Positions 20,936-57,870 of a stretch of DNA of 64,000 nt are shown here, one piece after another. Within the stretch, counting starts at the first letter, position 1. Every line of letters begins with the position of its first letter. Source of the stretch: an uncultured Clostridium sp. (GTDB taxonomy: Bacteria > Bacillota > Clostridia > Lachnospirales > Lachnospiraceae); assembly GCA_900544905.1 (NCBI GenBank), contig UQXF01000001.1, positions 19,504 to 83,503 of the forward strand. The letters run 5' to 3'. Under the pieces are notes generated by a model. That model had not been told where the DNA came from, did not search any database, and saw nothing but the letters and a program-made list of their open reading frames with translations. The translations under genes were made by a program, and so were the position numbers.

Positions 20936-21571
20936 TCATTTACATTTAATGCTCCCCTTTATCTTATTAAATACACCTTCCTTGATTCCCGGAATCTCCA
21001 TCAGTTCTTCGATGGATTTGAATCCGCCATGCTCCTCCCGGTACTGGATAATGACCTCCGCCTTTGACTCGCCTATCCCTGGCAGTGTCATTAAGGCTTC
21101 CCTGTCTGCCTGATTAATATTAACCAGTCCGTCATCCTCCAAAACCGGTTCTCCAGTCTCTTCCTCCATTCCCGGAACATACAGGGTTTGTCCATCGGTC
21201 ATATGCTCTGCCTGGTTCAGAGCCTCCGGACGTCCCTCCTTTGTCACTCCCCCTGCCAGCTCTAATGCATCACAAATCCTTGCATCCGCTGACAGCTGGT
21301 ATACACCGGGCTTTTCTACGTGACCACAGACATACACATAAATCCGCTGCTGTGCAGCAGCCACCTCCTGGTTTTCCAAATCGGACAAGGTCTCTTCCGT
21401 ACCGGAAACAGCTGCGGTCTGTCCGTCCGAAAGGGCTGTCCCCTTATCCGATGCGGTCATGACAGCCTCCTTTGTTCCACACCCTGTCAGGAAACCCAGC
21501 CCTAGAAACATAATCAGCCATATGTATTTGCTCATTTTTACACTCCCTTTCTCTTCAAAACAGTTACACAA
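20936..21571 (-). CDS. comEA: Competence protein ComEA (helix-hairpin-helix DNA receptor)
   Basis: The 211-aa product has a lipobox/signal LGFLTGCG and a C-terminal tandem HhH region INQADREALMTLPGIGESKAEVII... Confidence 0.8.
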   Translation of the reverse strand: MCNCFEEKGSVKMSKYIWLIMFLGLGFLTGCGTKEAVMTASDKGTALSDGQTAAVSGTEETLSDLENQEVAAAQQRIYVYVCGHVEKPGVYQLSADARICDALELAGGVTKEGRPEALNQAEHMTDGQTLYVPGMEEETGEPVLEDDGLVNINQADREALMTLPGIGESKAEVIIQYREEHGGFKSIEELMEIPGIKEGVFNKIKGSIKCK

Positions 21572-21696
21572 TTACAAAACGGAGTGCAATTTATAAAATG
21601 AAATAAAATAAGATATGTTTTCATAATACCTAAAATATGAACAATTTACAACTGTTTTTTTATCTATATTGCATCTAAAAAAGGACAATTCTTACA

Positions 21697-22252
21697 AAAT
21701 CAGACCTGTCTGCCGCAACCTCCTCGCAGAGGAGTACATAATTTTCACTATCGGAAGCTCCTTAAGATTTCCATGCCTTTTGCTATTTTTGTATAGTATC
21801 AGCCATGTATAACAGGATGATTTTTGCACAACCTTACGCTTCCTTGAAAGCTGGATGTTTTTAGACATTTGCCCTTATTGTGCGTCTTACGTGAAAACTC
21901 ATGCCACAACAAGTGGTTTCTCTATTGGTTTGCAGACCCTGTGTGAACGCGGGCACTTGGAACCTGTTCCTTAGATTCCTAGTGTCCCTTGCGTTCTAAG
22001 CGGAGCAAAAGCGTGTCTGCAAACCAATGAGAACCACTGTGTGGCATTCAAACAATCACTTTGGACGCACATGGCAAATGTCTATAAAAACAGCAGCTTT
22101 CTAAGGAATCTAGTTGATTGCAAAAATCGTCACTGTTATACATGGCTGATACACTATACCATATGCAAAAGGCATAGATACATTTTCAGCTTCCGATAGT
22201 GAAAATTATATCTGGCAGCTTCGCTGCCACCAGCGGCAGACAGGTCTGATTT
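21697..22252. repeat. 556-bp foldback (imperfectly palindromic) element with perfect 20-bp terminal inverted repeats
   Basis: The ends aaatcagacctgtctgccgc (21697-21716) and gcggcagacaggtctgattt (22233-22252) are perfect reverse complements. The arms between them are roughly 75% reverse-complementary, with indels, converging on the central palindrome ggaac-ct-gttcc at 21959-21970. No ORF of 60 aa or more lies inside. Confidence 0.6.
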
Positions 22253-22274
22253 TTGTTATTCCGGGCATTTCGTT

Positions 22275-22715
22275 CTATGCTTCCCACTTAAAGACGATAA
22301 GTCCGGCAATTGCAATCACAATTCCGATAAGCTTAGATACGGAAAACGGCACCTTTTCCACACCAAACCAGCCAAACAGCTCAATCAGATAGCCCACTAA
22401 CACCTGGGTTATGACAATTGCCAGAATTGCCTTTGCCGGTCCCAGTGAAGCCATGCTCTGAATTACCGTAAATGTGATAAATGCACCAATCACGCCTCCT
22501 AACAGCATATATTTGTGGTCCACCTTAAACAAATCTCCAACCGGCACCTTCCCCTGCTCCGTAAACAAAAAGAAGCCTGCACATACAATAAATGCAGTCA
22601 GCTGGACAAAGCTGTTTGTCAGCCACGGACCTGTCTCCTTCGTCACTCCTGTGTTAAATACTCCCTGAATACTCATCAATGCGCCTGAAATGCAGGCAAT
22701 CAAAAAGCCCCACAT
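22275..22715 (-). CDS. Small DMT-superfamily membrane protein (DUF606/YdcZ-like)
   Basis: The 146-aa product has four predicted transmembrane segments. The start was trimmed to the M at 22715, with AGGAGGGA 6 nt upstream. Confidence 0.45.
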   Translation of the reverse strand: MWGFLIACISGALMSIQGVFNTGVTKETGPWLTNSFVQLTAFIVCAGFFLFTEQGKVPVGDLFKVDHKYMLLGGVIGAFITFTVIQSMASLGPAKAILAIVITQVLVGYLIELFGWFGVEKVPFSVSKLIGIVIAIAGLIVFKWEA

Positions 22716-22837
22716 ACATCTTCCCTCCTGTTTTACCATAATTTAGCATGGTGTACCATTTTCCGGCATGTCTCACCTGATTTTTAGAATAGTATGCGTG
22801 GCTTTCCTATGTTTTTATTCATTCCGCTTTAAAATCT

Positions 22838-24169
22838 TTATTTAATTTTCTGTTCCATGGTGCTCTGAAGCCAGTCTAACTGCTCCTTCGCATCCTTTCC
22901 ATCCCATATGGCATCAAAGGCAATCCCGCTTTCCGTCAGATAGTCTCCCAAAACCATAACCTTCGGAATCGGTTTTGAATTCAGATACTGGGCATATATA
23001 ACCTGCTGCATGGCGTCAAAGCCTTCCTTCTGGTTGATAACCGGCAGCTTTCCGTTGCCGGAATACTGGTCCTTTGCACATTCACAGCTCAGATAGAGGG
23101 CAAACATATTTCCCAGCGCAGTATCCTTTCCGTATGGATTGATAAATGCTCCATAGGTGGTGGAAAATGTGGTGGAAGAAAGCTCCTCGGTTAAACTCGG
23201 AACATAGGATACCTGGTAATTGGTAACATCCGTATCCTCTTCTGTATCACCTTCCGTATCCTCCTGGTTCTCCGCCTCTGTCTTCTGTTCTGTGCCCTGC
23301 ATTTCATAGAGAGTCGGCAGAATATCTGACTTACACAGACCCAATACCAGGGTGCCGTCCTTAATGCGGTTCATTACCGTATCGTGGGATATATTACTCT
23401 TATCCATCCACAGATAGGCGCTCAAGGACTGGAAATATTCCATGGCTGCAATGGATTTCTCATCATTTACCTTAAACTCCGATGCCGTATCTCCCTTTTC
23501 GCCAAACAGATTGGCATAGGATGCAATAAACATGCTGTTGATATAAGGGTCTGCCACATCCCACCGGAATACCGCCTTTGTGGAGCCGGTATCCTCGTAC
23601 GCATCCAGAAAAGTCAGGATATCGTCAATGGATGCCGGTGCATTTTCCAGCAGATTGGCATCATATACCAGACAATAGGTGTCAAAATACACCGGATATC
23701 CATACTGCTTATCCTGATATGTGACTGCGTCCTTTGCGACCTCCGGATAATTCTCTTTCCAGAATGCTTCATCCAGCCATGTATTTTCCTCCGCCATTCC
23801 ACTGTTTCTGGCAAGCTCTAACTGGTCGTTTCCCATCAGATAAACATCCGGCCCGTTTCCCTTCTGGTTTGCCTGGTTCATATCATCAAAAAAGCTGACT
23901 CCGTCATAATAGACCAGATTCACCTTAACGGAATACTCCTTTTCAAATTTTTCTGCCTCAGCTTCCAGCCATGCCTTATCCTCATTTCCGGTGTACCAGC
24001 AGGTCAGGTTATCCTCTGCTGCGCTCTGCTTCCACTGCTCCATCAGCCCATCATAGGTTACCGGTCCGGCATCCGTCTCCTTATTCTGCTGTTTGGGTGT
24101 CCCGCAGCCCGCCAGCAGACCGGTTATCAATATGCACATCAGCCAAAAGGCAATTGTTCTTTTTCCCAT
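22838..24169 (-). CDS. ABC transporter substrate-binding lipoprotein (family 1 solute-binding protein, sugar-type)
   Basis: The 443-aa product has a lipobox LLAGCG and an SBP_bac_1-like composition. No adjacent permease genes were found, so it is an orphan binding protein. Confidence 0.7.
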   Translation of the reverse strand: MGKRTIAFWLMCILITGLLAGCGTPKQQNKETDAGPVTYDGLMEQWKQSAAEDNLTCWYTGNEDKAWLEAEAEKFEKEYSVKVNLVYYDGVSFFDDMNQANQKGNGPDVYLMGNDQLELARNSGMAEENTWLDEAFWKENYPEVAKDAVTYQDKQYGYPVYFDTYCLVYDANLLENAPASIDDILTFLDAYEDTGSTKAVFRWDVADPYINSMFIASYANLFGEKGDTASEFKVNDEKSIAAMEYFQSLSAYLWMDKSNISHDTVMNRIKDGTLVLGLCKSDILPTLYEMQGTEQKTEAENQEDTEGDTEEDTDVTNYQVSYVPSLTEELSSTTFSTTYGAFINPYGKDTALGNMFALYLSCECAKDQYSGNGKLPVINQKEGFDAMQQVIYAQYLNSKPIPKVMVLGDYLTESGIAFDAIWDGKDAKEQLDWLQSTMEQKIK

Positions 24170-26189: not shown

Positions 26190-26377
26190 ATTGTTATCCT
26201 TTCTTCCTAATCCTTCATAGGCAATTGCGAAACTACCTATTTTCAAATGCGTAGTTATGCTGTTATAAACCACGGTTAAAACCCGGTTTCCTATTATAGC
26301 ACTCTTTTATTTCCGTGTATAGTAAGGAAATCCGGAAATCTTTCCGTGTATGCTATTTCATAATTATACATTCCAAA

Positions 26378-26444
26378 TGAATATTATGCAAGCATTTTCT
26401 ATTTCTAATAATTTTTTCTCCGAAAAAGGGTTGCATAATATTCA
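26378..26444. promoter_or_regulatory. Two ARG-box-like operators (candidate ArgR sites) in the divergent argC/argG intergenic region
   Basis: The sequences tgaatattatgca (26378-26390) and tgcataatattca (26432-26444) are exact reverse complements of each other and resemble the ARG box consensus TNTGAATWWWWATTCANW. Confidence 0.4.
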
Positions 26445-26493
26445 TTTTGGTTGTATATTAGTCAATAGATATTTTGAAGGAGGACTTTTTACA

Positions 26494-27705
26494 ATGAAAG
26501 AAAAAGTAATTTTAGCTTATTCCGGCGGACTTGACACAACTGCCATTATCCCTTGGCTAAAGGAGAATTATGATTATGAAGTAATCTGCGTATGTATCGA
26601 CGTTGGACAGGAAAGCGAATTGGAGGGTCTGGAGGAAAGAGCAATCTCCTGTGGTGCTTCCAAATGTTATGTATTAGATGTAGTCGATGAGTTCTGTGAT
26701 GATTATATTGTTCCTACCGTCCAGGCAGGCGCTGTATATGAGAATAAATATCTGCTGGGTACTTCTATGGCAAGACCATTAATCGGTAAGGTTTTAGTAG
26801 ACATCGCTCACAAGGAAGGCGCTACTGCCATCTGCCACGGCGCTACCGGTAAGGGAAATGACCAGGTTCGTTTCGAGCTTGCCATCAAGGCATTTGGTCC
26901 GGAGCTTAAGATTATTGCAGCATGGAGACAGGATGCATGGACCATGAATTCCCGCGAGGAAGAGATTGCATACTGCCAGCAGCATGGTATCAATTTACCG
27001 TTCTCAGCAGATTCTTCCTATAGCCGTGACCGCAACTTATGGCACATCAGCCACGAAGGTCTTGAACTGGAGGACCCTGCAAATGAACCAAACTACGAGC
27101 ATTTACTCGTTCTTGGTACATATCCGGAAAAGGCACCGGATGAAGCTGAATATGTTACCCTTACCTTTGAAAAGGGTGTTCCAAAGTCTGTAAACGGCAA
27201 GGAAATGAAGGTTTCTGACATCATCCGTGAATTAAACCGCTTAGGCGGCAAGCATGGCATTGGCATTGTGGATATCGTAGAGAACCGTGTTGTTGGTATG
27301 AAATCCCGCGGTGTATACGAAACTCCGGGCGGAACCATTCTGATGGAGGCACATACCCAGTTAGAGGAGTTAATTCTTGACCGTGAAACATTGGCATTCA
27401 AGAAGACCATTGGCGACAAATTCGCTGACGTAGTATATGAGGGTAAATGGTGGTCACCACTCCGTGAAGCATTACAGGCATTTGTAGAGTCTACCCAGGA
27501 GCGTGTAACCGGTGAGGTAAAATTAAAGCTTTACAAGGGCAATATCATCAAAGCCGGCACAACCTCTCCATATTCCCTGTATTCTGAATCCCTTGCAAGC
27601 TTCACAACCGGTGATTTATATGACCACAAGGATGCAGAGGGCTTCATCAATCTGTTTGGACTTTCCACAAAGGTTCGTGCAATGCTGGATGCAGAGCGCA
27701 AATAG
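26494..27705 (+). CDS. argG: Argininosuccinate synthase ArgG
   Basis: The N-terminus is [16 protein letters not shown] (PP-loop). GAAGGAGGA sits 7 nt upstream of the ATG at 26494. The track ORF has a spurious 48-codon extension. Confidence 0.9.
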
Positions 27706-57679: not shown

Positions 57680-57870
57680 TCCATCATCTCCTTGTTTAAA
57701 ATGCCAACATTACTCTATCCGTGTCCGCCGTACCCTCGGCTCAACTGAAACGAAAAATGTTCGCCACCGAACAGTTTGCTCCCAAACTGTTCGGCAACGA
57801 ACATTATATTACGATTTCTTCACTATTTCAAGCAGAGTTTTTTTATTTCACAAAATTGTCATACTTTTAA

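Follow-up and report, generated by a model that had tools for sequence, protein, structure and literature searches.

The subject of this analysis is a long, imperfect palindrome that occupies the spacer between comEA and a DUF606 gene in a 64-kb stretch of DNA (64,000 nucleotides, hereafter "the window," with position 1 as its first letter) from an uncultured Clostridium sp. contig (UQXF01000001.1). The downstream neighbor, comEA (20936-21535, minus strand), encodes a 199-aa protein, and the upstream neighbor (22275-22715, minus strand) encodes a 146-aa protein. An earlier examination of the letters alone (the sequence-only reading) had named both genes, and their domain content agrees: ComEA (SLBB/HHH_3) and DMT_YdcZ (PF04657, formerly DUF606). 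As both neighbors are on the minus strand, the palindromic element lies downstream of the DUF606 gene and upstream of comEA.

The palindrome spans 558 bp (21696-22253). Its ends are perfect outer terminal inverted repeats, which had been noted as exact reverse complements of 20 bp and measure 21 bp (21696-21716 on the comEA side and 22233-22253 on the DUF606 side, both given on the plus strand; extendable to approximately 26 bp with one indel). No second copy of these ends was found within the window, even when 3 mismatches were allowed (chance expectation 0). The interior is palindromic as described, with an arm identity lower than the approximately 75% first estimated: alignment of the element to its own reverse complement gave 70.5% identity over 607 columns (BLAST), and global alignment of arm to arm gave 62% with 22 gap columns. 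This identity is unevenly distributed, with perfect runs of 22, 20, 20, 14, and 12 bp separated by unrelated linkers (P=0.002 for a run of at least 22 bp under shuffled mismatches). The arms meet at the predicted central mini-palindrome ggaacctgttcc (21959-21970). The arms show no resemblance to the adjacent DNA (BLAST), and a scan of the window for further long palindromes found none. Folded as RNA, the two strands reach -301.6 and -308 kcal/mol (z = -24.3 and -22.2, respectively), and the DNA fold of the element reaches -185 kcal/mol (z = -23.6).

Inside the terminal repeats are two subterminal hairpins of unrelated sequence, as had been recognized (ctcct-cgcag-aggag, 21720-21734, and tggcagc-ttc-gctgcca, 22213-22229). 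We denoted the former H2 (CTCCTC-loop-GAGGAG, 21719-21735, no strand assigned) and the latter H1 (CTGGTGGCAGC-GAA-GCTGCCAG followed by ATATAATTTT, 22212-22233, minus strand). Both face inward, and each is followed by the T-run of an inner inverted repeat, I2, which is present as two perfect 22-bp copies, left (ATAATTTTCACTATCGGAAGCT, 21738-21759, plus strand) and right (22188-22209, minus strand). H1 was scored as terminator-like in the DUF606 direction and alone folds weakly (-13.7 kcal/mol, z = -1.5). The inner repeats enclose a quasi-palindromic core of 428 bp (21760-22187, no strand assigned) that consists of two different arms, alpha and beta. The element is non-coding: as stated in the sequence-only reading, it contains no open reading frame (ORF) of 60 aa or more, the longest, of 58 aa, is not conserved between alleles, and no gene was called inside the element in any contig. 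Small-protein coding was considered and rejected because the mirrored ORFs are frameshifted or show only non-synonymous changes between alleles.

The terminal repeats are flanked by a short direct repeat, ATTC in the window copy (21688-21691 and 22258-22261, plus strand) and the 5-bp ATTCT in another strain (L036), which is a tentative candidate for a target-site duplication at this locus only. Because the direct repeat abuts both inverted-repeat ends, the whole element is delimited as 566 bp (21692-22257, no strand assigned), in agreement with the limit of homology to copies at other loci in four-copy and eight-arm alignments.

Copies at other loci were recovered through protein collections, using as bait the spurious 58-aa ORF, which extends out of the core and through the inner repeat. 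The search returned one protein, P0121, and its two JGI contigs (L043 and L044) contain an element 92-93% identical to the window copy, with the same kind of terminal repeats and unrelated genes around it. On L044, the copy is complete (92% identical) and lies downstream of tRNA-Leu(TAA), tRNA-Arg(ACG), and the terminator of these genes; on L043, the same core has a different left flank, a gene for a 118-aa coiled-coil protein. The right flank is common to both contigs and leads into a zinc-ribbon ORF. In the four-copy alignment, homology between the window and L044 starts and stops at the terminal repeats, and the cores of these two copies differ by 8.0%, similar to the 7.1% between the window and L036 alleles. 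A profile search of 1.84 billion representative proteins additionally yielded P0122/P0125, a diverged version of the spurious ORF with a different tail, on ENA contigs of approximately 1 kb; these likely derive from a more diverged copy of the element with another flank. The homologous copies beside unrelated genes, known from separate contigs, thus agree with the proposal in the sequence-only reading of a foldback-type mobile element.

Two features of these contigs were recorded separately. L043 and L044 come from different JGI samples; their last 640 bp are identical down to the same final base and their left parts differ, a pattern that may have come about by recombination between two copies of the element or through an assembly break common to both contigs. 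The 118-aa coiled-coil protein of L043 (70-426, minus strand) has a C-terminus that weakly resembles a resolvase helix-turn-helix domain (HTH_7, E = 0.005, below the family cut-off); its gene is located approximately 140 bp from one end of the element copy, and the association may be coincidental.

The anatomy of the family was determined by aligning the eight arms of four full copies. Every copy consists of one alpha and one beta arm, and the type-specific linkers are conserved between loci; thus, the imperfect palindrome is ancestral to the family and did not arise by decay in place. The blocks invariant in all arms include 21 of the 22 nt of I2 (8/8 arms), the core of the terminal repeat (TCA..CCTG), and some ten further stretches of 6-14 nt. 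The terminal repeats of L043 and L044 are homologous to those of the window and are imperfect. Outer modules (H1 or H2) and inner arms (alpha or beta) occur in all four possible pairings among the copies, which implies that the inner repeat was a site of exchange in two contexts or more. The order H1-alpha...beta-H2, common to the window and L044, is probably the ancestral arrangement.

Such an exchange is apparent among alleles of the locus itself. L036, retrieved through its identical DUF606 protein, differs from the window in 188 columns across the 428-bp segment between the inner repeats when the two are compared unflipped, and in 31 of 435 columns after in silico reverse-complementing of the core. 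Only the core is inverted in L036, with the inner and terminal repeats and the two subterminal hairpins unmoved. These alignments show an inversion of the core between strains with both boundaries at the 22-bp inner repeats, a feature that the sequence-only reading had missed. The remnant in a sister species is collinear with L036, indicating the inverted orientation there as well, and the remnant in a lineage with 92% ComEA identity is collinear with the window. The cores of the window and L036 differ by 7.1%, compared to 4-5% for the flanks of the same strains, and window-type cores on contigs from four samples (L001, L003, L038, and L041) are all in the orientation of the window. Judging from this divergence, the two orientations are old, diverged haplotypes and not fresh flips.

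One of these contigs, L003, from a metagenome-assembled genome (MAG), was compared with L036 and with window positions 21729-22362. It combines L036-like flanks (0.6-1.4% different) with a window-like core in the orientation of the window (3 differences). On the comEA side, the switch point is no more than 32 bp away from the inner repeat, and on the opposite side no more than 175 bp; L003 represents either a short recombination tract ending beside the repeat or a chimeric assembly. Purifying selection, for which the low divergence of the element in L003 (0.9%, against 3-5% in the flanks) had been taken as evidence, was withdrawn because L003 mixes L036-like flanks with a window-like core.

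Orthologous spacers, retrieved via ComEA, DUF606, and response-regulator look-ups, form an allelic series. Within the species, the long form is present in the window, L001, L003, L038, and L041, and a long form with a different interior in L036. Ten further contigs (L016-L021, L034, L035, L037, and L042) carry a hairpin that is 510 bp shorter and keeps AGGAGGTT of the interior. The lineage with 92% ComEA identity (L008-L011) has two internal deletions, and each of its contigs stops within the element. In the sister species (ComEA 86% identical), there is a short hairpin that keeps TGGTG (L005 and L013) and a form 100 bp longer than that hairpin (L012, L014, and L026); L005, the orthologous spacer of sister species UMGS1135, contains the short hairpin only. 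Relatives whose ComEA identity does not exceed 70% lack the element; their spacers are 130-215 bp long and contain the same comEA promoter. Given this distribution, the element appears to predate the split of the two sister species.

At least four deletion alleles can be distinguished, and in three of them, short direct repeats (GCAGA, CTG, and GC) are located at or beside the junction. The common short allele lacks 510 bp (21725-22234, no strand assigned) with end points that abut the 5-bp direct repeat GCAGA (21726-21730 and 22236-22240); GC microhomology is found in the short form of the sister species and CTG microhomology in its 100-bp-longer form. Because every short allele retains element-derived nucleotides (5-8 nt of interior), these are deletion scars and not empty sites, so that a search for clean empty sites, which had been suggested as a check on mobility, found none. 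In the short alleles, the two terminal repeats pair as a stem of 19-21 bp (-34 and -36.6 kcal/mol) that is followed by TTTTGT and is located 21 nt past the DUF606 stop codon. With a hairpin and a T-run downstream of a gene, these alleles resemble strong intrinsic terminators; in the long form, H1 plus ATATAATTTT was flagged as terminator-like but folds weakly. For the lineage with 92% ComEA identity, all seven contigs with this ComEA allele end at one point inside the remnant (position 1 of L008-L011), and the remnant has variants in common with the L043 and L044 copies and not with the window copy; this pattern suggests either that the element is repeated in the genome of that lineage or that the palindrome breaks the assembly.

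We consider it fairly probable that window 21692-22257 is one copy of a low-copy, non-coding foldback family of the MITE (miniature inverted-repeat transposable element) type, a family that is dispersed and undescribed; the interpretation offered in the sequence-only reading is thus partly supported. From the outside in, its architecture consists of terminal repeats of approximately 21-26 bp, a short hairpin, the invariant 22-bp inner repeat, and a two-arm core of approximately 430 bp. The common ancestor of the two sister species would have acquired the element by insertion, with a transposase probably supplied in trans, in the AT-rich DNA that separates the DUF606 gene from the comEA promoter, and the insertion may have produced a target duplication of 4-5 bp. 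As the comparison of alleles shows, it has since been inherited vertically, with the behavior known of long inverted repeats: the core has flipped by rare exchange within the perfect 22-bp inner repeats, and the interior has been removed several times independently by deletions, mostly between short direct repeats. In the shortest alleles, the two terminal repeats are left as a 20-bp hairpin followed by a T-run. In agreement with assignment to MITEs, the element is small (slightly above the usual size), lacks a transposase gene, and has terminal repeats and dispersed copies.

Several observations weigh against this interpretation. The candidate target-site duplication is present at one locus only, where a match of 4-5 bp could be due to chance, and neither L044 nor L043 has a comparable direct repeat where its inverted repeats end. 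Terminal repeats differ from copy to copy (imperfect in L044) and the inner 22-bp repeat is invariant, the reverse of what is predicted if a transposase simply binds the ends. A precise empty site is missing: the short alleles retain AGGAGGTT or TGGTG, and the elementless relatives have diverged too far for the site to be reconstructed. Both L043 and L044 are short contigs from metagenomes and are identical over the right 640 bp, so that one of them may be a recombinant or an assembly join. At 566 bp, the element exceeds the typical length of prokaryotic MITEs. No autonomous element with matching ends was found by blastn against plasmids and phages, with no search of an insertion sequence (IS) database made; the element itself had no match in these collections, and L043 had only a 56-bp match in its flank. 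Finally, the exact terminal-repeat 19-mer was confined to this locus in a scan of 185,579 species representatives, and so was the inner-repeat 20-mer in the JGI metagenome collection that was scanned. Across the genome and viral collections, the exact terminal-repeat scan returned this locus (MAG L003 and, in the sister species, L005) and chance hits in coding sequences (L002, L004, L006, and L007); across the metagenome and viral collections, the exact inner-repeat scan returned the sister-species locus and four coding-sequence coincidences; and two further core patterns had no match on viral contigs. These exact-scan negatives are weak evidence because such scans are blind to diverged ends, and L043 and L044 were missed by them.

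Prokaryotic MITEs are typically shorter than 500 bp, with terminal inverted repeats (TIRs) of approximately 4-30 bp, direct repeats that fade with age, and stable stem-loops (PMC10969869). Like Correia/CREE, RUP, and Coxiella QMITE2, the element described here is small, non-coding, intergenic, and located in AT-rich DNA, has TIRs in the 20-30-bp range, forms a very stable stem-loop, occurs as copies at unrelated loci, and shows weak or faded candidate direct repeats (PMC10969869). Unlike the usual MITEs, it is 566 bp long, has an apparently low copy number, and forms an imperfect palindrome from end to end, with two conserved types of arm; its most conserved part is the inner 22-bp repeat and not the termini, and no parent IS is known. 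Eukaryotic Foldback elements also consist mostly of long inverted arms and have no coding capacity, as here; their arms contain tandem subrepeats and are much longer, and no homology is implied. The short alleles (-34 to -36.6 kcal/mol followed by UUUUGU) are comparable to small dispersed repeats whose hairpin and T-run mimic an intrinsic terminator (PMC10969869); there is no sequence relationship, however, and the hairpin here is the remnant of a larger foldback element.

Long palindromes are prone to deletion (PMC3315005, PMC11754738), and the behavior of the locus is reminiscent of several unstable hairpin formers of several hundred base pairs, namely, interrupted palindromes in Escherichia coli with SbcCD, adeno-associated virus (AAV) inverted terminal repeats in plasmids, and human palindromic AT-rich repeats (PATRRs, approximately 450-600 bp), with which it shares rearrangement and a range of internal deletions in the population, most of them at short direct repeats (PMC3315005, PMC11754738, PMC1851657). 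Unlike in these systems, the arms are only 62-70% identical, which should stabilize the sequence, and the instability is deduced from natural alleles.

The main rival is a programmed invertible switch (inverton), in which the inner repeats would be sites for a recombinase encoded elsewhere in the genome, a flip would alter transcription into or out of the element and thereby how strongly comEA or the DUF606 gene is expressed, and the family would consist of dispersed switches. Invertons are flanked by inverted repeats of 10-40 nt, and, like the invertible promoters of gut Bacteroides, the core is a segment of a few hundred base pairs, bounded by perfect 22-bp inverted repeats exactly at the inversion end points, present in both orientations, and near a promoter (PMC11892184). 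This reading would also account for I2 being the most conserved part of the family (21 nt in all eight arms), for the four module-arm combinations with exchange in at least two contexts, for the inward-facing subterminal hairpins that, with the T-run of the inner repeat, look like insulators, and for the position of the element directly upstream of a promoter. We nevertheless consider it unlikely. The two orientations are found between strains only and correspond to the haplotypes with 7.1% divergent cores and 4-5% divergent flanks, whereas frequent flipping should leave both states identical, and the window-type cores from four samples all share one orientation. No recombinase gene is present within 10 kb on either side of the element, and a motif screen covering the 52 ORFs of the 64-kb window, together with a Pfam scan of ten of them, detected none, although a recombinase might act in trans. 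Promoter-like sites in the core are weak (9/12 consensus matches), not more numerous than expected from shuffled sequences, and not conserved in L036, so that no convincing internal promoter is evident. The interior is lost in many strains, and flipping a core that is quasi-palindromic alters little; in addition, unlike an inverton, the segment is itself part of a dispersed repeat. A variant that joins both interpretations, a mobile, self-contained DNA switch in which an outside recombinase flips the alpha/beta core between inward-facing terminator hairpins and which spread by transposition, strikes us as quite unlikely; if it were true, the switch would toggle read-through or antisense transcription beside the comEA promoter and make DNA uptake phase-variable in a gut Clostridia species.

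The extreme fold of both strands could instead point to a structured RNA gene, whose selected product would be a rod-like hairpin RNA of approximately 560 nt with a regulatory role or processed as double-stranded RNA. The pairing blocks are invariant across copies, the linkers form conserved internal loops, and small RNAs are known from MITE transcripts (PMC10969869). Yet both strands fold equally well, as a DNA palindrome should, and the interior is dispensable in many strains. A search of Rfam, including ROOL, GOLLD, and raiA as had been proposed, gave nothing at E<=1 over 21000-23000 or by gathering score over the whole window. In the consensus fold of five copies, 4 of the 205 pairs are changed on both sides, with an unfavorable covariation term (+3.16), and G-U-compatible changes are balanced between the strands (6 to 5); this sparse covariation and lack of strand bias argue for a DNA palindrome rather than a selected RNA. 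The hairpin-RNA alternative raised in the sequence-only reading thus seems very unlikely. A further possibility is a locus-specific palindrome that has never been mobile and formed in place, for instance, through inverted duplication at the site of a terminator hairpin. The confinement of the exact terminal 19-mer and inner 20-mer to this locus, the lack of plasmid or phage matches, and the resemblance of the short alleles to ordinary terminators would fit such an origin, but copies with the same terminal structure lie beside unrelated genes on L043 and L044, the alpha/beta asymmetry is common to different loci, and the arms are unlike the adjacent DNA. This possibility is largely refuted and, in our estimate, extremely improbable. 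Two narrower models had been discarded: the 20-bp ends as a host terminator with a 511-bp element inserted into its loop, given the interior nucleotides kept in the short alleles and the terminal repeats that accompany the element at other loci; and a single-locus, never-mobile palindrome decaying in place, after the L043 and L044 copies and the eight-arm alignment.

Under the favored reading of a MITE-like foldback element, its effect on the adjacent genes would likely be that of a terminator or insulator after the DUF606 gene, with the comEA promoter untouched. Two details of the sequence-only reading need correction here: the comEA start chosen by the gene callers is the ATG at 21535 rather than 21571, and the element is not inside the comEA promoter. 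That promoter, a sigma-70-type TTGTAA-17-TATTAT (21623-21651, minus strand), has its conserved -35 box 45 bp beyond the element edge, is intact and conserved in every allele, and is shared by relatives whose ComEA identity is as low as 61%. Little effect on competence is accordingly expected, and any influence is probably limited to insulating comEA from DUF606 transcription.

The region around the promoter shows further features. Comparison of window 21536-21695 with the same stretch in L015, L027, L028, and L032 revealed that the comEA promoter and a leader of approximately 90 nt (GTATCTTATTTTATTTCATTTTAT..ATTGCACTCC) are almost invariant in relatives with 61-70% ComEA identity; divergence is 0-1% between strains whose coding flanks differ by 3-5%. 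The leader has no Rfam match. The promoter and leader together may constitute a conserved regulatory leader. In L015 (ComEA 70% identical), a different, unrelated hairpin with a 22-bp stem occupies the same place after the DUF606 gene (2790-2845); its 3' half (AATTGTCCTTTTT) is kept in the window species beside the element, and relatives more distant than L015 have no hairpin after the DUF606 gene. In the short-allele strain L042 (2466-2951), comEA is called at only 161 aa, with a start inside the promoter region, which suggests a deletion or frameshift.

Elsewhere in the window, two shorter inverted repeats were noted. At 26365-26457, a 34-nt inverted repeat (85% complementary, 25-nt spacer) is located at the start of a 451-aa ORF (26350-27705) in an arginine-biosynthesis neighborhood and could be an operator or attenuator. 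The other, at 57756-57805 between two ABC-transporter-like operons, measures 23 nt (87% complementary, 4-nt spacer) and resembles a repressor operator.

With respect to methods, exact-pattern scans wrongly suggested a single locus, and it was spurious ORFs in protein databases that recovered the other copies. At one locus, the alleles range from the full element through a flipped core and partial deletions to a remnant of two terminal repeats, a series in which a foldback repeat decays into a hairpin indistinguishable from an ordinary intrinsic terminator. Given such decay, some terminator-like hairpins in Firmicutes spacers may be transposon scars. The family would add an uncharacterized repeat to the genomes of uncultured gut Clostridia, and an inner repeat more conserved than the termini hints at a protein partner.

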